Shown: positions 1-64,000 of the stretch, in pieces
Numbering within the stretch: the first letter of the stretch is position 1
Layout of the letters: every line of letters begins with the position of its first letter
IMG/VR virus record: IMGVR_UViG_3300037761_000250
Span: 15,279-79,278 of that record
Source of the DNA: a virus
Taxonomy: Duplodnaviria > Caudoviricetes
Length of the DNA stretch: 64,000 bases
Reading direction: 5' to 3' (one strand)
The notes under the pieces: generated by a model
What the model was told of the DNA's origin: nothing
Seen by the model: the letters and a program-made list of their open reading frames with translations, nothing else
The model's database searches: none
Made by a program: the position numbers and the translations under genes

Positions 1-1650
1 GGCTTGTTTGTAGTCGCCTTGGACGAATACATGTCCCGGGAGGCAAACGAACTGATTACGAATGTCTTTGTCTCGGTCCACGTTTTGCAAGTTAGGGTTA
101 CGAGAAGCAAGTCGTCCGCTAGTGGTTGCATGTAGAGAATAAGTGGTGTAGATTTTTCCATCTCTAACCTTTCGTCGTAATCCTTTTACGTAAGTTCCAT
201 ATAATTTTCCAAATCGACGATTTACTAATAGTAAGTCTACAAACGGACCAACTGGATCGCGCAATGACAAACGAATCTGTTTCAAGAAATCTTTTGATGT
301 TGTTGGTATTGTATATCCGTGTTCGGCAAAATATCGCTGAATCTGAATTGGAGATCGAGGATTCAACTTCTTACCAATAGCCGCTTCGATCTCGGCCTCA
401 GACTTATCTAATTTTTCTTCATAAACTTCGTGTAGATGCTGGTTGTATTCAAGGTCGAAGTAGATTCCGTTTAATTCAATGTGCATCAGTTCATTTGCTG
501 CTTCGATCAAGAATTTGTGCAACTTCTTGTTATCTGCCGACATCTTGGATTCTTGTTGTTCAATCAAATCCCAAGTAGAGCAAGCATCATATGCATTGTA
601 TTTGTAAAGAATAGGTTTTGGAATTTTGGCGTAACTTCCGTCTTTTCCTTTAACGTACTTTTGTATTTCCTCGTCATAACGAGGAGCACCTAAGTCTTCA
701 ACCGCTCTGTCTTTAAGGCCATGCTGGCGTGGTCGTTCATCCAATACGTAAGATCGAAGCATCCCGTCTCCACTTAATTTTTTTACTCCAAACAGTGGAG
801 ATAGCCCAAGCATATCGAATTTTCCATTCCAGGCTTCTACTGGAACTTTCTCTATCAATTTGGCAAATGCGGCAATACAGGCTTCGTCTTTGAATACCCG
901 ATCTCCAAAAACCACAGCCTGTGACTTGGTGTACGCCACACCCACACAAAGGATTTCATAGTTCTCTGGGTGGGAATCATCCAAATCTTTGTCCGAAGCC
1001 GCCTCGATATCAATGACAACTTTGTCGACCGAGCTAAGCCTATTAATAGCCACAAGCGCGGTAGTCGGATCGTTAAATACTTTATATATGGGCGGCCGCC
1101 AACTGAGTGGATCATTGAATAATTTTCCTACGTCGGTAACGAAACTTGGGAAAGCATCAGGTGTCCTTAAACAAAATGCCGGATGCCAGGTACTTATTAC
1201 TGGACCATACTTTGATGAACGATCCCAACCAATCCGAAGTTTTGTAATTTTAGTTTTGGTATTAAGAAGAACCTGGGCCGATGTACCGCCAACGGCAAGA
1301 ATCTTCGGAGCTGCTGCTTTCTCTAGATCATATTCCAACCGCTCATTACAGGCACTAATTACTTGCTTTGGAGGTTTTTCAGTAGGTCCATATGGACGAC
1401 AGCTTACAGTATTAATTAAAGCAATATCTTTGCGCTCAATTCCGTGATAATTTAGTACCGATTCCAGCAACTCACCCGAAGGTCCGGTGAACGGGATGCC
1501 GGACCTAGCCTCCTGCGCTCCCGGTGCCTCGCCCACCACCGCTAGCCTAGCCGAGCCGGCTGGGAATTGGCTTGGGACGTACTTGCCTACCTCACGCCAC
1601 GGGCAAATTTCGCACGCTGCCTTCGGATGCTTTCTTGCTGGAATTTCCAT
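1..1650 (-). CDS. polA: Family-4 uracil-DNA glycosylase / 3'-5' exonuclease / family A DNA polymerase fusion (3' end truncated by window edge)
   Basis: Translated by hand from ATG at 1650; open to base 1 and absent from the ORF track. UDG motifs CEICPW, VVGEAPGAQE..GIPFTGPSG, NTVSCRP and WHPAF; exonuclease motifs VIDIE, WNGKFD and YNAYD; PolA motifs TTSGRLASRNPNLQN and GDYKQA. Confidence 0.93.
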   Translation of the reverse strand, partial: MEIPARKHPKAACEICPWREVGKYVPSQFPAGSARLAVVGEAPGAQEARSGIPFTGPSGELLESVLNYHGIERKDIALINTVSCRPYGPTEKPPKQVISACNERLEYDLEKAAAPKILAVGGTSAQVLLNTKTKITKLRIGWDRSSKYGPVISTWHPAFCLRTPDAFPSFVTDVGKLFNDPLSWRPPIYKVFNDPTTALVAINRLSSVDKVVIDIEAASDKDLDDSHPENYEILCVGVAYTKSQAVVFGDRVFKDEACIAAFAKLIEKVPVEAWNGKFDMLGLSPLFGVKKLSGDGMLRSYVLDERPRQHGLKDRAVEDLGAPRYDEEIQKYVKGKDGSYAKIPKPILYKYNAYDACSTWDLIEQQESKMSADNKKLHKFLIEAANELMHIELNGIYFDLEYNQHLHEVYEEKLDKSEAEIEAAIGKKLNPRSPIQIQRYFAEHGYTIPTTSKDFLKQIRLSLRDPVGPFVDLLLVNRRFGKLYGTYVKGLRRKVRDGKIYTTYSLHATTSGRLASRNPNLQNVDRDKDIRNQFVCLPGHVFVQGDYKQA

Positions 1651-1678
1651 TTTCACCTACTAATACTATTTATTATTT

Positions 1679-1891
1679 CTACGTGTTCAAATATTTGATC
1701 AAGATCAGTGCGTTCTTTGTAAGTTCCATAAAATACAAATTTCGCCTTGGATACTCCCCGCAATTGTGAACAGTGGGAAACATATATCGCTTTTTCTTGT
1801 CTCTTGGGTTTATGTCATTCTCGCGGCAATAATCATAAAACTGCCTGTAGTCTCCAGCTACAACATACTTAGTAATTGGTTCCATTTTCAC
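1679..1891 (-). CDS. Hypothetical protein
   Basis: 70 aa ORF packed tightly in the leftward operon. Confidence 0.55.
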   Translation of the reverse strand: MKMEPITKYVVAGDYRQFYDYCRENDINPRDKKKRYMFPTVHNCGEYPRRNLYFMELTKNALILIKYLNT

Positions 1892-2080
1892 CTCCTGGAT
1901 TTATATATGACTTCAATTAAAATTTCTGGATTGATACCAGTTTTCAAACAACCCTGCATAAATTCAGTGATTTGTTTAACCGAAAATCCGTATGCCCAAA
2001 GCAGCTTGGTCCACTCGTGTGTTTTGGTATATGAAAATGGTAAGTACCGACTAAGATTAGTTGCTAGTTCTTCGTATTCT

Positions 2081-2587
2081 TTATCCACTACTACCGTAAC
2101 CAGTTCCGTCAGGATATATAATTGTGTAAGGCAATTTTGCTGATTTTGCATATTCAATTGTGGTCCAAGTACCAGATCTTGGAACTTTTTTCATGGTTTT
2201 TGGAGTTGCTAGCAGATAAGCAGATTCAGTTATAATGTTAAGGTCTCTTTCTAAGTATGTTTTTGGTTTTCTGGTAACATCGTTCAAGTACATTTCACCC
2301 ATCATGAACTTTTCATTGATTGGTGGATGACCAATGACAGTGAAATCCAAACCTTTTGCTATAAGGGCAACTTGGTAGTCCGCGCCTATGCAGCATCCAT
2401 GATGTAATACATTGAATCTGTGGTAGGTTAGAAAATTGATTACTCCAGCCATTTGCTTGTGTGATAGCCCATATTTTGTTCCTGTGAATCCTAAATGATT
2501 TTTGTTTTTTACAGGTTCTTCATAAGTTTTCACGTTTTCGTCTATAAAATACTCTAGCACACTAGAGTATTCTAACACACTTGTCAT
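2081..2587 (-). CDS. SLOG/DprA-like Rossmann-fold nucleotide-binding protein
   Basis: Motifs GFTGT, HHGCCIGAD, GHPP, ERDLNI and SGTWTTIEYAK resemble the SLOG superfamily; start moved to ATG 2587. Confidence 0.65.
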   Translation of the reverse strand: MTSVLEYSSVLEYFIDENVKTYEEPVKNKNHLGFTGTKYGLSHKQMAGVINFLTYHRFNVLHHGCCIGADYQVALIAKGLDFTVIGHPPINEKFMMGEMYLNDVTRKPKTYLERDLNIITESAYLLATPKTMKKVPRSGTWTTIEYAKSAKLPYTIIYPDGTGYGSSG

Positions 2588-2589
2588 TT

Positions 2590-3401
2590 TTACTCCACAA
2601 TTATAATACGGAACTTTTTGCAATCACAGCCTATGCACAAGCATTTCCCCACCCGATCAAGGTGGGCGCCGTCTGCATGTTTACAACGACACCATTTAAT
2701 CTTATCTATAAGTTCGAATATATTTTTCATTATGTTACCGTGAAGGTCCTTGTGGAGTGTCCTTGGGGTTATCAAGATTCAGTTCACGTTTAGGCCCACA
2801 CATGTCAAACAATGCTATTAAGGCAGGATGTTTTGGATATGCTGCGCCTTGAGGACGTGAGCCACGCTTGCGTGCAGCATATAGTTGAGGTCCTATAAAT
2901 GCTGCCTCGGACACCCGGTTGCAATCAATTACTGATTCTTCGAACAACTTCACGTCTTCTTTTGATCCTATTTTTTCACAGTCGGAAGTTGCCCACCAGA
3001 ATGTATCGTCACAAAGTGCAAATACAGTTAAATCATCGTGCCAGAAAATTCCTTCTTGGATGTCGTATTTAGCAACAAGTTTGGCCACTTCTAGGAAGAT
3101 TTCTATTCTCTCATTTTTCATTTGCTAGCTCCCTAAAAAGATGCCAAACAAATCCATTAGTTGCCAATGCGGTTCCCACGTATTGGATACTGGAGACAAT
3201 TTCTGGTACTGGCCAACCAGTGCCAAATGCCTTAAACATGTAAGATATTGGTGGATGGTCATTTGTCCATGACCAAAATTCCACTATGTCTGATTCACGA
3301 CTTGCAACATGCAGGATTGGACCGGTTAGAGTAATTTTGTGCCATTCCTCGTCTACTGGAACTTCGTACCGATAAATTCTTTGTGGCTGTTTATTCGTCA
3401 T
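2590..3401 (-). CDS. Three small hypothetical genes (2590-2775, 2735-3121, 3111-3401)
   Basis: Tightly packed or overlapping ORFs with phage-like composition; the first is Cys-rich. Confidence 0.55.
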
Positions 3402-6613: not shown

Positions 6614-7429
6614 TTAGGCATTTTCTTCCATATTTTTCGGTGTAAAAGAAATAAATCCATCAGTAGGCAGATTCAAGCACAAATAAATTGCTTCGAGTGC
6701 GTTTATAGAATCAGCTATTAGCTCGTTTATTGTTTGTGGACTTGGATTGTTTAAAGAATTCTTGACCATTTCAGCTCTAGCTACTCGCAACTCTGATAGT
6801 GCAAGTAACGCATCTTCTACCATTGGTATTGCTCCAATCGATACAGCTCAAGCCACTTCCAGTTGCTCATTTCGTTATAATTATCCCACTTTTCCTTTAA
6901 CCTAGCCTTTAAGTTCAGCATTTTTATAGTTGTCTCCGTATCCACCCTTCGACCTTCGGTCAACATATCAATCGACTTCATCCACAAGTAAGGGTATTTA
7001 GTGCTGGTTGGATGCCAATATTTGCTAACTCTGGGTTGTACGTCATAAGCAGCGTGCTTGGCCTTGTATTTATTTTTTGGGTTTGCAATGATCCATACTA
7101 ATAGTACAATTCCAGAAACGATCAAGATAGCACCTAGGAACATAAAAAACGTCAACATATTATTACCACTTCCAAGAGTATTGACTGTATGTGTGTTCGT
7201 TACAACTAACTTCTACCTTGTAGTGAGAGATATCAAAGCTCAGGAAAGCCATTATCCTTTGATATAATTCAGCACAAACTGCTTCCGTATTATCTGCTTT
7301 TATTCCCTTCGAAACAATATGCACTTGCTTTATTAGTGTATCTTGGTTAAGTGTAATTTTTCCGTTGTTGAAAACTTCGATTTCAATGAAGTAGCCATTC
7401 CATTTAGTCTGTACTTTCATCCCGTACAT
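6614..7429 (-). CDS. Three small genes (6614-6823; 6817-7158 membrane-anchored; 7163-7429)
   Basis: Packed ORFs; 6817-7158 has an N-terminal transmembrane helix. Confidence 0.5.
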
Positions 7430-7883
7430 CGACTACCTCTCCCTCAATTAAAACAGTCTCATATACTTTTTCCCATGGTGCCCTTTGAATTCCAGCAGAC
7501 AAATTTATCGAAGCAGTTTCCATTCCATAAAGTTTTGATTTCCTTTCAAGTGCCTTTAGGACAATAGCCGCGGCCAGTTTGTCTCCACGGCTAGCATCGT
7601 CAATGAACCGCTCAACAATATTATCAATTTGGTGTGCCATAGTCTCCCGAAGTTCATTTACTCCAGGAGCCTTTACTTTCTGAAACATTCTATTTAGATA
7701 TGCACGTACGTTATCTTCACTGATGTTTAGTGTTTCAGCAATATCGTAGTAAGACTTCCCAGCATATCTCATTCGAACTATTGCCTTAACCATCTTTCCA
7801 TATCTAAATCCAAGCGCTTTGAAATTAGTAATTTCTAATGCTTGTTCTAAAAGATCGGGTTCTTGTTCGGGTTTGTATTCCAC
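7404..7883 (-). CDS. HTH DNA-binding protein
   Basis: GKSYYDIAETLNISEDNVRAYL is a LuxR/sigma70-r4-like HTH with a helical C-terminus. Confidence 0.7.
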   Translation of the reverse strand: MEYKPEQEPDLLEQALEITNFKALGFRYGKMVKAIVRMRYAGKSYYDIAETLNISEDNVRAYLNRMFQKVKAPGVNELRETMAHQIDNIVERFIDDASRGDKLAAAIVLKALERKSKLYGMETASINLSAGIQRAPWEKVYETVLIEGEVVDVRDESTD

Positions 7884-7920
7884 TTAGAATCACCACCCAT
7901 ATTTTATATCTTTCAGTTAA

Positions 7921-7955
7921 AGAGACCCAGGGCACCCCCCGTGCCCTGGGTCTCT
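7921..7955 (-). terminator. Intrinsic terminator
   Basis: Perfect 15-bp stem AGAGACCCAGGGCAC/GTGCCCTGGGTCTCT with a 5-nt loop and a T run on the minus strand, just after the DUF669 gene. Confidence 0.8.
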
Positions 7956-7987
7956 GGCGATTAATTTATTTAGTTAAAATAGCCAAC

Positions 7988-8473
7988 CTAAGAAGGAAGC
8001 GGAAGTCCACTTCCAGACTTGTCCTTGGCACTATCCAACTTCTGGAAGACAACGTTGAACTCGTCCCGCTCCCGAATCTCGCCGTTCTTCTTCTTGGTTC
8101 CAGCCAGGAACTTAGTGCCCTTGACAGAGCACTTCTGACCGATGAAGGAGGTGGGGTCGGGAGCACCATTGGGTGCCGTAGGCAAGTGGATTTCCTTGTC
8201 AACAACATATTCGGGATGAACGGCATCACAAAGCCATTTAAGCGCGTAGGCTTCTCCCCAAAGCATGATGTTGGTGTATACCGGGAGACCTTGGTATTTT
8301 CCTTCTTCAATGGTCAGCTTGGTCCGCCAGAACGGCTTGCCCGTGTTCTTGCCCTGCTGAACTTCTTCCGAAGTTATATCGGAAATCATGACAACGTATC
8401 GACCAGTTGGAGGAAGTTCGTATTCTCCTGAACTAGCTGCCACGTTATCTGACATATTAAGCTTGAAGGTCAT
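7988..8473 (-). CDS. DUF669-like ssDNA-binding protein
   Basis: YELPPTGRYVVMISD...GKPFWRTKLTIEEGKYQG; adjacent to the AAA ATPase. Confidence 0.7.
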   Translation of the reverse strand: MTFKLNMSDNVAASSGEYELPPTGRYVVMISDITSEEVQQGKNTGKPFWRTKLTIEEGKYQGLPVYTNIMLWGEAYALKWLCDAVHPEYVVDKEIHLPTAPNGAPDPTSFIGQKCSVKGTKFLAGTKKKNGEIRERDEFNVVFQKLDSAKDKSGSGLPLPS

Positions 8474-21551: not shown

Positions 21552-21695
21552 TTTAATTTATTATTTACCACTTAATGTGGAAGTGTCGCGTCGACTTTGC
21601 AACTCAGTATCCGGCGGTCCTTCTTGTTTAAGACAGTGTATCTGTCACCGTCAATACTGGACACTTCCACATTAAGTGGTCAATAATAAATTAAA
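21552..21695. repeat. 36-bp inverted repeat enclosing a 72-nt structured loop
   Basis: Arms 21552-21587 and 21660-21695 with one mismatch. Confidence 0.9.
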
Positions 21696-35075: not shown

Positions 35076-35614
35076 AATCGATGATCTTGAACTAGCTATC
35101 TTCAAGGTCATCGATGAGACACCCCCCTCTGACCTGCGAGTATGCGGTGAATCTACGCGATCTGCTTTATTAGTAAATGAGAATCGATGATCTTGAACTA
35201 GCTATCTTAAAGATCATCTATGTGTCACCCCTTCTGACCTGCTCATATTCGGTGAATCCACGTGATCTGCTTTATTAGTAAATGAGAATTGACCACTGTC
35301 GATCACTACTTGATCTACTAGATCAGTGGTCGTCGATTCTACGTGATCTGCTTTATTCGTAAATGAGAATGCCCTGGTCAGAGCGTTTTTGATCTCATTT
35401 ACCTCTTAGAATGAAAATGAGAATTTGCAAGATCAAAATACCTCCTGAGCTGCACATTCTCATTTTCTCTTATCTATGAGCGGATCACGTATATTTGATG
35501 GTTGTCAATTCTCATTTACTAATATAGCAGATCACGTAGATTTGCCGAGTATGCGCAGGTCAGACCCGGTGTTCCATCGACGATCTTGAAGATAGATAGT
35601 TCAAGATCATCGAT
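35076..35614. repeat. About 106-bp repeat cluster (2 tandem, 1 partial, 1 inverted copy); candidate origin or packaging region
   Basis: Units 35076-35181, 35182-35286, partial 35337-35370 and inverted 35508-35614. Confidence 0.9.
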
Positions 35615-35945: not shown

Positions 35946-36621
35946 TACCTTTTCTTGTCCACAAGTTGGACAAGCGTAACAGCCACAACGCCAAAAATTG
36001 TTTTTGGTTGTTGGACAGACTTTCTTTTCTTTCACTTTTTCCTTTTCTTTCCTTTCCTTTTTCCTTTCCTTTTTCCAATTCACCCGTAGGGGTAAAGAAA
36101 TTAGAGGAAATAGGAAAATTGGGAAAATTAGGAAAATTGGGAAAAATAAAGGTGGTGCGCGACTAGAAACCACCCGCCGTGACCGGGGCATTTTAAGTCC
36201 CCTCCACATCCGCTGTGAAAACCGAATCTAGCCGCTATAGAGTTGTCAAACGGTGTTGCTGGGATCGATGACTACTTGCCTATGGATGGTTTGGTTAGCG
36301 TTAGCGCCATTGTTGGTAGAGGGATATCCTGCTCGTTGCCACTCTGGGCAAGTCCACACTAGGAATCCGGATATACCGACGTAACGGTTGCCAATTCCAC
36401 TTACACTCTAAGGCTATGCAGTTGTCGATCTTTTCCGCCCTATCCCGTACTGTTCGGGCGGAGTAATCGTGGCCTGTTTGTATTCCCGGTGGTTTCTCAA
36501 GCCACCTTTGGTACGGGACCACGTTGTTAGGACAGTCAGACCTAACCTGACCGTACAATCCGCTCACTTACACTTACCCCTTATGGGCATCGGTGGGTGA
36601 ACATTTGTAGTATCCCAACTA

Positions 36622-36696
36622 GGGAATACGGTGGGAGTCGAACCCGTTATTACTGCCCGAACAGTGTAGCTTTAGCCACCCCGGGAACCGTATCCC
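36622..36696 (-). ncRNA. Degenerate tRNA-like element
   Basis: 75 nt; GGATACG/CGTATTC acceptor-like pairing and GGG-TTCGACT-CCC T loop; non-canonical D and anticodon arms. Confidence 0.45.
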
Positions 36697-36965
36697 GTTA
36701 CTCATGCTAGCGTTAACTCTATCCTAGGTTAGAGCCTGACCCGAGTAACTAAGCCAGTCTTCCGAGTAACTCTCACTACATTATCCGGAAGCTCAGTTGT
36801 CGTTGTGCCGTTTCTCCGTAAGCTTGGTATCCTTGGCACGCCACGGGCCTTCACGTTTTGCGCGTTCGGTGCCCGGAACGTTCCGCTTGATAAGCTTGCG
36901 GTTGTCGGCGTTCAGCCTACGCTTCATGCTAGCTCCGTTCGTTTTCAGTTGTGCTTGCGATTGCC

Positions 36966-36995
36966 AGTCTAGTTGGCTTCCGTCTGGACTGTCAA
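36966..36995 (-). promoter_or_regulatory. HrdB-type promoter
   Basis: TTGACA-18 bp-TAGACT upstream of a 44 aa ORF (36793-36927); GTCAAC-AGG-GTTGAC palindrome at the -35. Confidence 0.65.
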
Positions 36996-37319
36996 CCCTG
37001 TTGACCGGTTTTCTTTATTTTGGAAAAATGAACAATTGGGACATTTTGCTGTACTGTAACGATCATGGCCAGCACAGCGGAAACCCCTCTCAGCGCCACG
37101 CTGACGGGTTGGAAATTCAGACCCTACCAGGGGTAGGGGTTTGGCTTGTGCGTCCGTCAGGTTGCGGTAGGTCGGTCCGCTGGTGCTCTGCCTGCCCGCA
37201 ACGCGAGCACCATAGCTTGCCACCGTGCTGGCGCGCCATCTCTTCCTCTCCGGTGAACGGACAGAACACAATTGCGAACTCTTGCCGATGAATTTTCATA
37301 TTTCCACCTTTTTGTTTGT

Positions 37320-37659
37320 TTATACCACTATATGGTGACTCGCCACGGATGTACAGTTTTTACAGGCTACTGCCGATAAAGTCGATAACCTTAGTTTGGA
37401 ACAGTTTGATTGCTCTGTTCCAATTGTGCGTATAGGTGCCATTGATCCATCCGCCGCAACTGAGCGATTCTTCCGTTATGGTGGCAACTACGTACTTTGT
37501 AGGTGCTTGTGTCCAGTGGTCTGGATAGATTTCTACCAGAATGACGCCAATTGTCGGACCCGTGTAGGAATGAATCACTGTGTACCCATTGAGGGTACTT
37601 GGGATTTTTAGCATGACTTGTCCGTTTCTATGTGGGCAAGTCACCATATAGTGGTATAA
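37320..37659. repeat. Cassette 1: 21/21-bp inverted repeat enclosing gene 37360-37614
   Basis: TTATACCACTATATGGTGACT (37320-37340) and its exact reverse complement (37639-37659). Confidence 0.95.
37360..37614 (-). CDS. Small hypothetical protein (paralog of 38453-38698)
   Basis: MLKIPSTLNGYTV..GPTIGVIL; start moved to ATG 37614. Confidence 0.7.
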   Translation of the reverse strand: MLKIPSTLNGYTVIHSYTGPTIGVILVEIYPDHWTQAPTKYVVATITEESLSCGGWINGTYTHNWNRAIKLFQTKVIDFIGSSL

Positions 37660-37664
37660 CACTT

Positions 37665-38139
37665 AATTGTCTAGGCATGTGCCTACTTGTCCGGAATTGT
37701 GCTAGTTGCGAGGATAGACCATTTCGCACTTTTCGCACTCTACTGTGCGGGTTTGTGCAACTGTGTCCAGATCCTCATCATTCACGTACATCATCCCGGA
37801 AACCCACGAATGAAGGCATTCGTCCGGATAATCTGGAATGTCCGGATCGTCTGGATAGCTGTTTCTGTCCTCATAGTCCATTTCGAGGAAACTGTCCAGT
37901 TCGTACATTTTGCTACTTCCTGTCCAGATAGAGAACATTGTCACCGATTACCACAAATGACTGACCGGTACCGTTTCCCTGGATTTGCGCATTCCATGCG
38001 CAAAAGCCCGGACTGTCCTCAGTTGGGCAGGATGGGGCAATTGCGAACAGAATCGCAATTAGGAAGTTTAAGAAAAATTCCATGGTTTGTACCTCTCTGT
38101 CCGTTTTGTGTGGACAAGTAGGCGCAAACCTAGACAATT
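37665..38139. repeat. Cassette 2: 25/28-bp inverted repeat enclosing genes 37702-37908 and 37913-38083
   Basis: AATTGTCTAGGCATGTGCCTACTTGTCC (37665-37692) and GGACAAGTAGGCGCAAACCTAGACAATT (38112-38139). Confidence 0.93.
37702..38083 (-). CDS. Two small genes: acidic Cys/His protein (37702-37908) and putative secreted peptide (37913-38083)
   Basis: MYELDSFLEMDYED...; MEFFLNFLIAILFAIAPSCP... (signal-like) with RBS GAGG. Confidence 0.65.
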
Positions 38140-38142
38140 CTA

Positions 38143-38745
38143 GATGAATCCGGACATATGCTGCCATGTCCAATTTGTCTTAAAGGATCTGATCTTTCCG
38201 AACTAGGTAGGTTCTGTGTGAATTGACCGATTCGACTAGGTATCGGTCAATTGGGATGACAAATCCATTGTGGTACTGTTCGTACGGCTTTGCGTCGAGT
38301 ATCACCTTCACCCGAATTGGGATCAATGCGTCATCTAGCATGACTTCGACCGTATCCTGGATATTTGTGCCGTAATAATCGGTTCCGTACTTTTCGCTGC
38401 ATTCGCGGCAATAGCGCGGATCGTGGTCGTGTGTCCTAGTTGTCATGATTTGTCAGTCCGTCAACAGATTCGCGTGGAGTAGATTGGAAAGTCTGGTATG
38501 GAACCTAGTGCGTGCGATGATGTATCTGTCCGTAAACTCACAGTCGCCCAATTCGTCCCGTTCGAGACTTTTTATTGAAATGTTCCCCACGACCCATTCG
38601 TCCTTATCCTCATTGGATGCGAGGATAATACCAAATACGGGGGTAACATATGCCATGTGCACTTTGTACCCTTGGATACTATCCGGAACCTTTAGCATGA
38701 TTTGTCCATTCTGTTAGGACATAGCAGCATATGACCGGATTCATC
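38143..38745. repeat. Cassette 3: 27/29-bp inverted repeat enclosing genes 38180-38446 and 38453-38698
   Basis: GATGAATCCGGACATATGCTGCCATGTCC (38143-38171) and GGACATAGCAGCATATGACCGGATTCATC (38717-38745). Confidence 0.95.
38180..38698 (-). CDS. Two small hypothetical genes (38180-38446, 38453-38698)
   Basis: ORF track; both lie exactly inside cassette 3. Confidence 0.7.
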
Positions 38746-38747
38746 GT

Positions 38748-39270
38748 GACTTATACCGTTATAAAGTGACTCGCCTGGATTGCCTCAGATGTGGACGTTG
38801 TGCCGTTCGCGTAGTACGTCCCCATTGAGCAGAAGGTACTTTTCGCTCCATGTGCGATCAATGTACTCATTGGCCAGATTGATCGAATCGTTGTACTTTG
38901 CCCCAAGAACCTTGGAAACGACCATTCCGTCCGTAGTTCTGTGGAATGCTCCATTTTCGGAGGTAAGTGCGCATGGCCAGGCTTCGACCATAATGCCCAC
39001 AATGCCTTCACTTGGGACGATAAGGACGTCTCCGTCCTTAATGCCGTCTTCGACCTGAGTTAGGTTATATGCGTCTCTTGACCCATATGCGAAGATATGC
39101 ACCTTTGGTGCGTATTGTGCTTCTTGTGCGATTCGTACTTCTCCGACGGTTAGGTCCGTTCTGCAACTTCCGTCACAGTTAGACAGGTTATCCACGCATT
39201 TGTCGGAATTGTTCATGATGATCCCTTTGTCCGTTTTGACTAAGCGAGTCACCATATAACGGTATAAGTC
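38748..39270. repeat. Cassette 4: 25/27-bp inverted repeat enclosing gene 38785-39216
   Basis: GACTTATACCGTTATAAAGTGACTCGC (38748-38774) and GCGAGTCACCATATAACGGTATAAGTC (39244-39270). Confidence 0.95.
38785..39216 (-). CDS. Hypothetical protein (143 aa)
   Basis: Start moved to ATG 39216 after an ACGGACAAAGGG leader. Confidence 0.7.
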   Translation of the reverse strand: MNNSDKCVDNLSNCDGSCRTDLTVGEVRIAQEAQYAPKVHIFAYGSRDAYNLTQVEDGIKDGDVLIVPSEGIVGIMVEAWPCALTSENGAFHRTTDGMVVSKVLGAKYNDSINLANEYIDRTWSEKYLLLNGDVLRERHNVHI

Positions 39271-39272
39271 TA

Positions 39273-39659
39273 GACGTGTTCGGACAAATGCCACTTTATC
39301 TGTTTTGCACTACTTGCGGATGATTGTACCATTCTCGTCATAGAAGACGATTTGTCCGTTTGCATCCCGGAATGAGATGAATTGACCGGAAAGTGCCATA
39401 CCGGTGTTATGGCGCACGTTTGTGCGCAAAACACCAGAATCGGGGGAAATGTCCGGGTTTGCTTCGGCTTGACGCAGTACATCCCAATATGTGTACTTTG
39501 CCTTGATACCCGGGGGTTTGTTCACCTTGATGCGCTTTGGGCGCCTTTGTCCGTTTTTGTGAACCATTCCGTGGTAATTGGGCATAATACCCTCCATGTC
39601 TGGGAAAATCGGAATTGTCCAGATTTTTACAGACAAAGTGGCATATGACCGAACACGTC
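39273..39659. repeat. Cassette 5: 28/31-bp inverted repeat enclosing gene 39310-39585
   Basis: GACGTGTTCGGACAAATGCCACTTTATCTGT (39273-39303) and ACAGACAAAGTGGCATATGACCGAACACGTC (39629-39659). Confidence 0.95.
39310..39585 (-). CDS. Basic hypothetical protein (91 aa)
   Basis: GGAGGG RBS; start at ATG 39585. Confidence 0.7.
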   Translation of the reverse strand: MPNYHGMVHKNGQRRPKRIKVNKPPGIKAKYTYWDVLRQAEANPDISPDSGVLRTNVRHNTGMALSGQFISFRDANGQIVFYDENGTIIRK

Positions 39660-39816
39660 ACAAAGTGCTACGCAATGTGTATGTATGCGCTGTTTAGTTG
39701 GCAATGTACCGAAATGTCCGAATTTCTCCGGCTGCCTACGGTATGTCCGTAGCGTCCCGTTTTCGGGCACTTTAGGCGAAATACGGACTATGTCCGTACA
39801 TCACCTGAAATGTCCG

Positions 39817-39981
39817 TTATGCCAGGGGATCGTACCCTATGCCTGAAACGAACCTTTCGTACGCCCTTACGAGCTTTTGGGCGTATTCGTGGGAGATGTC
39901 ACCTTGGTAGTGGTCTGCTATGGATTGTGCCACTTCCAGGTGGTATTCCTGCATTTCGGTGGAGTAGTCCTGTTTTGTCAT
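39817..39981 (-). CDS. Hypothetical protein (54 aa)
   Basis: Hand-translated MTKQDYSTEMQEYHLEV...; AGGAG RBS. Confidence 0.55.
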   Translation of the reverse strand: MTKQDYSTEMQEYHLEVAQSIADHYQGDISHEYAQKLVRAYERFVSGIGYDPLA

Positions 39982-40381
39982 GGTGTGTACTCCTATGTCC
40001 TGCTATGTCCGTTTCGCCCCTGTCTGGGCGCTTTCGTCCATTGTAGCATGTGGGAACGCTCCCAGTATGTTGATCTTGGAGTAATTTCGCTATTTGCCAA
40101 AAGAGACCAATCTGGACATTTGATGATAGATCATGTTAAATGATGTTAAATGATGTTAAATTATTATTTGTTATAATATATTGTGATATAATATGATATA
40201 TAGCTATATTATTGATTTGTCCAATTTGTTGTAATTGCACGCCAACCCCCACAAACTGCAAGGTAAATATTGACTGTCCACATTGGACTCAAGGTCTACA
40301 TTGACCGTCCAGGAGCTGGGCGAGCTGGCTGATGTCGCCCAGCTATAGACAAGACAGGACATAAGGTGTACCGTACAGCTC

Positions 40382-62559: not shown

Positions 62560-63644
62560 ATGACCGCACAAATTATTAATCTAAAGTTAGAACAAGGAGC
62601 TAATTTCAGTCGAGTATTTGATATTGTTGTAGATGATCCAGATACTGGTGATCCAATAAGTTTGACTGGATTTCAAGGTAACATGCAGGCTAGATCTGAA
62701 CCGGGAGATGAACTATTAGTCGAATTTGATGTTAGCATTGATGTTACCGGACGACGAGCAATAGCTACTTTTGCTGCTGTTGACTCCGAACTTATGACTT
62801 GGAGTAGTGGAGTATACGATTTGGTAATTTCCAGTGGTAGTGATGTATACCGAATCGCCGAAGGTAACATTAGTCTTAGTAAACAAGTAACTATAATTGA
62901 TGAGGGGGTTTAAATGGCACTTGGATATGAAGTCACACTACGGAATACTAGGCTCGACGCAGTTACCACTAGAGCTGGTAACGCCGCGTTGCTACGCGTT
63001 TATGATGGTACCCGTCCGGCGACTGGGGCAGCAATCACTACTCAGGTGTTGCTAGCGGAGCTAGTTTGTGGTTCGCCGTTTGCGGCTGCCGCTGCGGCTG
63101 GAGTTCTGACCGCAAATGCGATTACGCAGGATGGGACGGCTGATGCTACCGGCACTGCCAGCTGGTTCCGACTCGTACAATCAAATGGCACCACTTTCGT
63201 TATGGATGGTAACGTTGCTGCCTCCGGTTCTGACCTGAACCTGGATTCCATCAATATCGTTGCCGGTGGTGCCGTGTCGGTCACATCGTGCGTAATCACA
63301 CACGGAAACCCGTAACAGAATAGGAGAATATCATGGCAGGTGGATACTACGACCTATCCACAGGAGTGACCGTCAACCAAGTGGCCGGCGGAATCGCCAC
63401 GCGCGCCCGGGATGTGATGTTGGATATCGTCAAGTTCGACGTCTTCCGAACGGCGAATACCCTCACCGATGCACCATGGAGTCTACCGGGGGCATCAGCG
63501 GGCGATATCGTTAGCTCATTTAATGACCTCGTGCACCTTCAACAAATCTGGGCCGGGGTGGTGCAGGCCCGCGACCGGGCGGACACCGCGTTCGTGAACT
63601 ACGATTTTCAGACGTTCGTGAAGCGGCTCTACGGGCCGCGCTAA
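62560..63644 (+). CDS. Three virion-associated genes (62560-62913, 62914-63315, 63333-63644)
   Basis: 62914-63315 has RNTRLDAVT..LRVYDGTRP..GTASWFR, common in tail modules. Confidence 0.6.
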
Positions 63645-63656
63645 TCTAACAACCAA

Positions 63657-64000
63657 ATGACTACAGTCCGTAGGCTGGGTAACGCCGACGACATCTCCTT
63701 TTCCACTGGACTCGGAGGTGTCGACGGCGCTACCTATGGTACGATCGCGATTCTGTTCCGCCCATTGCCAGATCCTGTCTGGCATTGGCTGGTAAAGCTG
63801 CACGATATCTCCGGTGTGGAACTAGGTGGTGTCGGGGTACTTAGCGATGGAAGGTTATATTGGGCCGGCGAGTCCATCTGGTGGACAGAAGGACCAGCTG
63901 TTACTTTTGGTGATTGGCACGTGTTGGTCGCTCGGAAGAACACTGGCGACTTAAAGCCAAGGTTCAGCTTGCAAAATGTTGCGACGGACATGTGGAATCA
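63657..64000 (+). CDS. Probable LamG/concanavalin-like virion protein (truncated by window edge)
   Basis: Hand-translated from ATG 63657, open to the end; TIAILFRP...GDWHVLVA beta-sandwich pattern. Confidence 0.5.
   Translation, partial: MTTVRRLGNADDISFSTGLGGVDGATYGTIAILFRPLPDPVWHWLVKLHDISGVELGGVGVLSDGRLYWAGESIWWTEGPAVTFGDWHVLVARKNTGDLKPRFSLQNVATDMWN

Follow-up and report, generated by a model that had tools for sequence, protein, structure and literature searches.

In the 79,278-bp IMG/VR virus record IMGVR_UViG_3300037761_000250, small minus-strand genes at the start of the leftward operon are enclosed, one or two at a time, by the arms of five long inverted repeats. The repeats lie between positions 37320 and 39659 of the 64,000 nt part of the record that was analysed (the window). 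The locus raises the question of whether such repeats act as DNA elements or as RNA structures, and of what they would do for the enclosed genes. Comparison with related phages suggests that they form long-range helices in the leftward early mRNA, and with moderate confidence these are taken to be signals for the host RNase III, leaving messages with their ends clamped together.

Geometry of the five units

The five inverted-repeat pairs (units C1 to C5) abut one another and were found by a repeat search and by a separate scan, with 24/25, 25/28, 27/29, 25/27 and 28/31 matches between their arms, respectively. Five consecutive pairs had already been described in a first-pass annotation of this DNA, where the 21/21 matches given for C1 represent the perfect core of the 24/25 pair. 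All arms are named here for the minus strand. The first helix after the early promoter region is that of C5, with its 5′ arm at 39629-39659 and its 3′ arm at 39273-39303, 6 nt past the stop codon. In C4 the 5′ arm (39244-39270) pairs with 38748-38774, 10 nt past the stop codon; in C3, 38717-38745 pairs with 38143-38171 (8 nt past the stop codon); in C2, 38112-38139 pairs with 37665-37692 (9 nt); and in C1, 37635-37659 pairs with 37320-37344 (15 nt). The next gene, at 37117-37299, lies outside any helix.

Neighbouring helices are separated by 5, 3, 2 and 2 nt, and the partners of each pair are 290-545 nt apart, across genes. The predicted open reading frames (ORFs) bear out the earlier claim that one or two complete minus-strand genes, together with their ribosome-binding sites, lie between the arms of every pair. 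In all five units translation begins 18-43 nt inward of the 5′ arm, and 6-15 nt separate the last stop codon from the 3′ arm, so the closeness of stop codon and arm described previously holds, over a narrower range than the 6-19 nt first given. The intergenic space is mostly occupied by arms. A YATRTG-like core, said to be shared by the units, is present in C1 and in C3 to C5 (as CATATG or TATATG); the term central imperfect zone suits it better.

Inverted repeats with at least 19 matches occur 12 times in the window, compared with 0-2 times in each of ten order-1 shuffles of it. All five long-range helices appear when the 2411-nt sense RNA is folded to minimum free energy (MFE), in agreement with the five adjacent helices predicted by the first-pass annotation, and the pairs formed in that fold number 25/25 (C1), 26/28 (C2), 28/29 (C3), 26/27 (C4) and 29/31 (C5). 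The adjacent arms of neighbouring units are not complementary to each other. Two paralogous arm families can be recognised, one comprising the arms of C1 and C4, which differ by compensatory changes, and the other those of C3 and C5. The 3′ arm of C1 (37320-37343) can also pair with the 5′ arm of C4 (39244-39267, 22/24), and the 3′ arm of C5 pairs partly with the 5′ arm of C3, so that larger alternative enclosures of several units are possible.

The leftward operon begins with the array, which promoter-like sites at 40130-40235 precede by 470-570 nt. A consensus scan of the array found no terminator-like sites on the minus strand and a single promoter-like match there, which lies in the 3′ arm of C1 and agrees with the consensus at 9 of 12 positions.

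The helices have a median length of about 30 bp, individual lengths being 25-31 bp for those of the window and 19-39 bp for those of the relatives described below. Their mismatches are concentrated in the central third (67%, compared with 39% expected), and a spacing of 3 nt between successive mismatches is seen 18 times, against 7 expected (P = 0.0005). A typical helix shows a U.U mismatch 11-17 bp from its outer end, followed by an A.C mismatch. This central clustering indicates that each helix is made up of two stems, of about 11-15 bp apiece, with a weak centre between them.

Two candidate structures were examined and rejected. The archaeal bulge-helix-bulge motif has two 3-nt bulges on opposite strands with a 4-bp helix between them, whereas the centre of the present helices has 1x1 mismatches and no bulges, and no RtcB is encoded. 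A switch, in which the inner end of the 5′ arm (UGUCC) would toggle between a GGACA in the leader and the 3′ arm, was discarded because the relation is absent from two of the related phages (L016 and L024) and from the second array of the same genome.

Conservation in relatives and the level of pairing

Relatives were found by scanning viral contigs with an alignment of terminase homologues and then applying an inverted-repeat chain finder. The alignment was needed, as scans of viral contigs with single proteins (C4, C5 or terminase) gave nothing. A metagenome scan with the C3-arm pattern returned spurious matches only, blastn against cultured phages gave no match, and Rfam showed no family in the array region.

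The same layout, with unrelated arm sequences, is present in four phages whose terminases are 51-62% identical: L011 (four units), L031 (seven units), L016 (three units, with GC-rich arms) and L024 (six units, with GATC-rich arms). L018 has several gene-enclosing helices, some of them nested. L094/L095, with five units, and L092, with two units and a portal of a different type, were reached through homologues of the C4 protein. A second array lies in the same genome, outside the window, at record positions 992-2926. Its pairs (992-1024/1374-1406, 1409-1439/1937-1967 and 2513-2542/2897-2926) have GC-richer arms that end in CGATCTC, and it stands at the head of a further leftward block of genes, from which plus-strand genes diverge. 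Between phages, most cargo proteins show no recognisable relationship, so that what persists is the complementarity between partner arms. Each lineage appears, from the sequences, to have its own 'dialect' of arm words. In L024, the array at 900-3200 has a strong excess of GATC in its arms, leaders and start regions (e.g., GAGATCATG).

Comparison with related phages, the check suggested by the first-pass annotation, revealed arm changes that preserve pairing, units gained or lost, and cargo replaced. The 5′ arm of C2 is identical in L094/L095, as are the first 28 nt of the C5 5′ arm in L094. L094/L095 also retain the C3 arms, in which A-U has become G-C by a double change, G-C has become G.U and U.G has become U-A. 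In the C5 arms a U-A to C-G change and several G.U changes are found, and RNAalifold retains the terminal helix, in which both members of pairs have undergone substitution.

The types of mismatch differ between the two strands. An A.C in the sense RNA corresponds to a G.U in the antisense RNA, and in 35 curated helices the sense G.U/U.G mismatches number 47, compared with 25 A.C/C.A, while U.U mismatches outnumber A.A by 21 to 1. An automated set of 43 helices gave 51:27 for G.U versus A.C (p = 0.009) and 19:3 for U.U versus A.A (p = 0.0009). The sense duplex is more stable than the antisense in 26/35 helices, by a mean of 2.9 kcal/mol (Wilcoxon p = 0.005). The asymmetries of mismatch type and duplex energy, along with the pair-preserving changes, favour sense RNA over double-stranded DNA, and judged from these sequences the pairing is most likely selected at the RNA level. 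Of the two readings offered by the first-pass annotation, the parcelling of an early mRNA by helices thus gains from pairing that is conserved without sequence, from G.U and compensatory changes, from the sense-strand asymmetry, from the closeness of the promoter region and from the lack of terminators; the cutting that it also proposed is treated below as a prediction.

Unit C3 shows that arms and cargo evolve separately. The order C5-C4-C3-C2, in the direction of transcription, is common to the window and L094/L095, where two extra units precede C5. The flanks of C3 are about 90% identical to those of L094/L095, on one side from the 3′ arm of C4 through the 5′ arm of C3 and the leader to the ATG, and on the other from the stop codon across the 3′ arm and onward into C2. 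The coding regions enclosed by these flanks are unrelated, with two genes in the window versus one 73-aa gene in L094/L095, and 38698 (start codon) and 38180-38182 (stop codon) mark exactly where homology breaks. Arms and untranslated regions that are about 90% identical around unrelated genes imply that arm function is independent of the cargo and that ORFs are exchanged within the arms, which together with the untranslated regions behave as generic 'sockets'. Contigs of related strains likewise lose homology at the unit borders.

It may be, and this is put forward tentatively, that arms and untranslated regions act as RNA-level 'sockets', such that any inserted ORF would obtain a processed, end-clamped and insulated message, and that ORFs are exchanged between phages from start codon to stop codon. 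A socket array of this kind would be a functional analogue of an integron array, working through mRNA structure instead of a recombinase, and fast-evolving early genes (for host takeover or counter-defence) could be swapped without retuning their expression. The ORF-precise swap of cargo within conserved arms offers a concrete, testable case of how such genes are exchanged.

Predicted processing and competing explanations

In the proposed mechanism, the 5′ arm upstream of a start codon would pair with the 3′ arm downstream of the stop codon, placing one or two complete cistrons in the loop. Host RNase III would cut in or beside the imperfect centre, releasing mono- or bicistronic mRNAs whose 5′ and 3′ ends would stay clamped by the inner 12-15 bp. 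Clamped ends could give protection from end-dependent nucleases, and translation starts would be insulated from neighbouring genes. Neither RNase III nor RtcB ligase is encoded by the phage genome, so any cleavage would be performed by the host, and circularisation of the messages, part of the original suggestion, is unlikely.

Early mRNAs of phages T7 and SP82 carry local, intercistronic RNase III hairpins, and the T7 sites have an internal loop. As in these phages, an early polycistronic RNA would be divided by double-stranded signals, and the T7 arrangement, an internal loop with a stem on either side, recalls the imperfect centre of the present helices. T7 hairpins are local and lie between genes, whereas the two strands of each window helix stand on opposite sides of a gene.

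A closer parallel in layout is found in rrn operons, where RNase III processing stalks are described as flanking the 16S and 23S rRNAs (PMC6582327). The window units share with these stalks a leader and trailer hundreds of nucleotides apart, a helix of about 20-30 bp around a functional RNA and consecutive units in one precursor; as in rrn-type stalks, the helix is formed by the sequences that flank the enclosed RNA, is at least 20 bp long and is kept by compensatory change. They differ in that they enclose protein-coding cistrons with ribosome-binding sites, belong to a phage early operon and abut, all five, at 2-5 nt, and in that their cleavage is presumed. In Bacillus subtilis, RNase III cuts long-range mRNA duplexes of 10-36 bp, formed by sites at most 505 nt apart, with a 2-bp stagger (PMC11780869). 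The proposed chemistry thus operates on cellular mRNAs with long-range duplexes, although the B. subtilis sites are scattered, single and paired at the cuts, in contrast to a cistron-bracketing array with weak centres.

The PeSL cassettes of T4-type phages consist of a sigma-70 promoter and a local terminator stem-loop, with sequence conserved between copies (PMC2839356; PMC4122927). Like the present units, they bound small, variable early genes, mostly of unknown function, with repeated elements, and show insertions, deletions and replacements between related phages. The window arms differ from them in having private sequences, no terminator and at most one weak promoter-like match. Another precedent for pairing across a gene is the icaR mRNA of Staphylococcus aureus, in which the duplex is reportedly an RNase III target that covers the ribosome-binding site and represses one gene. 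It is formed by the 3′ untranslated region and the 5′ untranslated region (PMC3868564). Pairing in the window leaves out the ribosome-binding site, extends over a much greater length and recurs in every unit. A literature search found no description of an array of protein-coding cistrons each in its own helix, which agrees with the first-pass annotation in this respect, and gene-enclosing helix arrays are apparently unpublished.

Several points weigh against RNase III processing of the array. Transcription as one RNA, the RNA ends, the cleavage, the enzyme and an effect on stability are all features that we infer from the layout. The centre of each helix is imperfect, and since the cuts in most published RNase III sites fall within paired bases (PMC11780869), cleavage could be on one strand, off-centre or absent. 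The sense bias is not uniform, as L016 and L024 taken alone have no excess of G.U in the sense strand (8 sense versus 11 antisense in our own tally of arms). G.T wobbles are tolerated in single-stranded DNA also, and some sense G.U pairs would arise without selection if C is deaminated to T in the non-template strand, though U.U cannot be made in this way. Finally, such arrays are missing from the first 50 kb of the 63-kb genome of Arthrobacter phage Wollypog, the closest cultured phage by terminase.

The main competing explanation is that the helices form in the mRNA and are left uncut, serving as structural clamps or insulators, a possibility that is real but considered unlikely. Such clamps would keep initiation regions from misfolding with neighbouring, often exchanged genes, bring the stop codon near the start codon for re-initiation, and bury intergenic RNA so that it is closed to Rho and to single-strand endonucleases. 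All of the RNA-level evidence fits uncut helices equally well, including the exchange of cargo within constant arms and the occupation of most intergenic space by arms, and the central mismatches might disfavour RNase III if, as in published sites, pairing at the cuts is the rule. It is hard to see, however, how helices of 25-31 bp, which are ordinary substrates of RNase III, would escape an enzyme present in most bacteria, and the conserved weak centre with its 3-nt mismatch spacing suggests a specific geometry of recognition or cutting.

A second alternative places the function of the repeats in DNA, as the ends of mobile or invertible cassettes (integron, inverton or transposon-like) whose terminal inverted repeats would mediate exchange or flipping. 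Relatives differ in which whole units they possess (the two extra units of L094/L095), cargo has been replaced between conserved arms, homology to other strains breaks at unit borders and arm families are paralogous within the genome, all of which such cassettes would explain. The enzymes they would need were not found: the tyrosine recombinase domain PF00589 has no match in the 79-kb record, although 14/14 control genomes give one; no serine recombinase (resolvase/invertase) occurs in the genome; and a Pfam screen of 81 ORFs gave no transposase among the 25 families listed of 32. The arms have no common recombinase core or shared boxes, and no target-site duplications are present in the 2-5-nt flanks. 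Orthologous units are all in one orientation, and contigs from three sediment DNA runs, which contain the source contig and fragments of related strains, show no inversion, excision or strand-switch joints, although rare forms could escape contigs. Uninterrupted identity between two arms is limited by the central mismatches to 10-21 bp at the longest, a poor substrate for homologous inversion, and this should suppress inversion by that route. Cruciform extrusion is implausible with loops of 290-545 nt, and the 21:1 ratio of U.U to A.A and the G.U asymmetry are meaningless for sites in duplex DNA. Action at the DNA level is consequently judged very improbable. The second reading in the first-pass annotation, an active system of inversion or exchange, fails on these grounds, and only its notion of exchange survives, in that whole units and cargo have been exchanged during evolution.

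Particular DNA elements were also considered and rejected. Integron attC cassettes were set aside as no IntI-type tyrosine recombinase is present, the arms flank the gene instead of forming a local 3′ palindrome, and there are no R and L boxes. Invertons and shufflons were set aside given the lack of an invertase or integrase, the single orientation and the absence of strand-switch joints in contigs, from which rare variants could escape. Elements resembling miniature inverted-repeat transposable elements or insertion sequences would not have arms private to each unit, nor lack both target-site duplications and a transposase (of the families listed in the screen).

Two further explanations receive very little credence. 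Arms could be duplex-DNA binding sites of a phage or host regulator, operator- or stoperator-like, that came to be inverted around genes by chance. Lineage-specific words do recur in or near arms (GGACAT/ATGTCC in the window, L011 and L031; GATC in L024 and the second array), but each pair has a private sequence, it is the complementarity of partners and not a consensus that is conserved, the arms of L016 share the architecture without the GGACA word, and compensatory changes would not be expected of independent protein sites. Equally doubtful is that the repeats are neutral footprints of the origin of the units (e.g., genes inserted in the loops of former intergenic hairpins) with no present function: arm families and unit shuffling do record duplication and recombination, but pairing persists at 51-62% terminase identity, with cargo no longer recognisably related, and is accompanied by compensatory changes and by mismatches confined to the centre.

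If RNase III processing of the array operates as proposed, a widespread group of uncultured, probably actinobacterial phages would have solved early-gene expression differently from T7, SP82 and T4, by giving each small early gene a private rRNA-style stalk. Gene-enclosing RNase III processing would be extended from stable RNAs to arrays of mRNAs, and the arrangement would provide a natural design for gene insulation in synthetic operons. It would also supply a sequence-independent signature for the hypervariable early genes of unknown phages, the usual site of anti-defence functions.

Cargo genes, genome setting and other repeats

All cargo genes lie on the minus strand and were identified as ORFs. 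C5 carries a 91-aa basic protein (39310-39585), the sole homologue of which is an 85-aa protein of L094/L095. The C4 protein (143 aa, 38785-39216) has homologues of 42-51% identity in L092, L094 and L095, each of them again enclosed by a helix; a search of the ESM Atlas with it gave no usable match. C3 contains genes for proteins of 81 aa (38453-38698) and 88 aa (38180-38446), and C2 contains genes for a 56-aa protein with a hydrophobic N-terminus (37913-38083), which matches phrog_19904, and for a 68-aa acidic protein (37702-37908). The single C1 gene (83 aa, 37360-37611) is a paralogue of the 81-aa C3 gene, as seen from the translations and from a direct repeat. No cargo protein has a Pfam match, and phrog_19904, of unknown function, is the only PHROG family represented.

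Directly upstream of many early start codons on the minus strand of 36000-40010 lies a leader motif, AAACGGACA(A/T)AGG. It is common to L011, L031, L094 and L016, and resembles the start-associated sequences of cluster K mycobacteriophages. TGTCCG sites are concentrated in the same part of the genome, with 13/31 of the window total lying within 36-40 kb. The leaders of the paralogous C1 and C3 genes (37360-37611 and 38453-38698), GGACAAGTCATG and GGACAAATCATG, have no Shine-Dalgarno sequence, and L094/L095 carry AGAGGAGC where the C3 leader of the window has a 9-nt deletion.

Minus-strand genes run leftward from about 40,100 to position 1, and the structural genes run rightward from 40,382, including those for the large terminase, portal, protease and major head protein. 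The closest cultured match of the terminase, in Arthrobacter phage Wollypog, is only 36% identical. A WhiB domain and an Ltp lipoprotein are present among the ORFs screened with Pfam, and from these domains the host is probably an actinobacterium. Upstream of the array, a minus-strand leader region (39660-40235) contains a 54-aa ORF (39817-39981) and the leftward promoter-like sites located by consensus scan, and is 77-81% conserved with L094/L095. Three tandem 10-bp AT-rich repeats (TGATGTTAAA-like), probably an operator or other regulatory site, are also found at 40121-40160, in the divergent promoter region that separates the early operon from the structural one.

Three other repeats were noted in the genome. 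A non-coding region of about 540 nt (35077-35614) is built from two repeat units; in its sense RNA, the 5′-side copy of each unit can pair with two or three alternative downstream copies, and the outermost combination of pairings gives an imperfect helix of about 110 bp. The region may serve as an origin of replication or encode a structured RNA that can pair in alternative ways. The 1.1 kb at the end of the record (window 62910-64000) is 88.7% identical to a stretch near the start of the same record (record positions 7012-8102), the result either of duplication of a late (tail-region) gene or of two strains having been joined in the assembly. Lastly, a 36-nt inverted repeat with 35 matches is found at 21552-21695, around 72 nt that contain no ORF.

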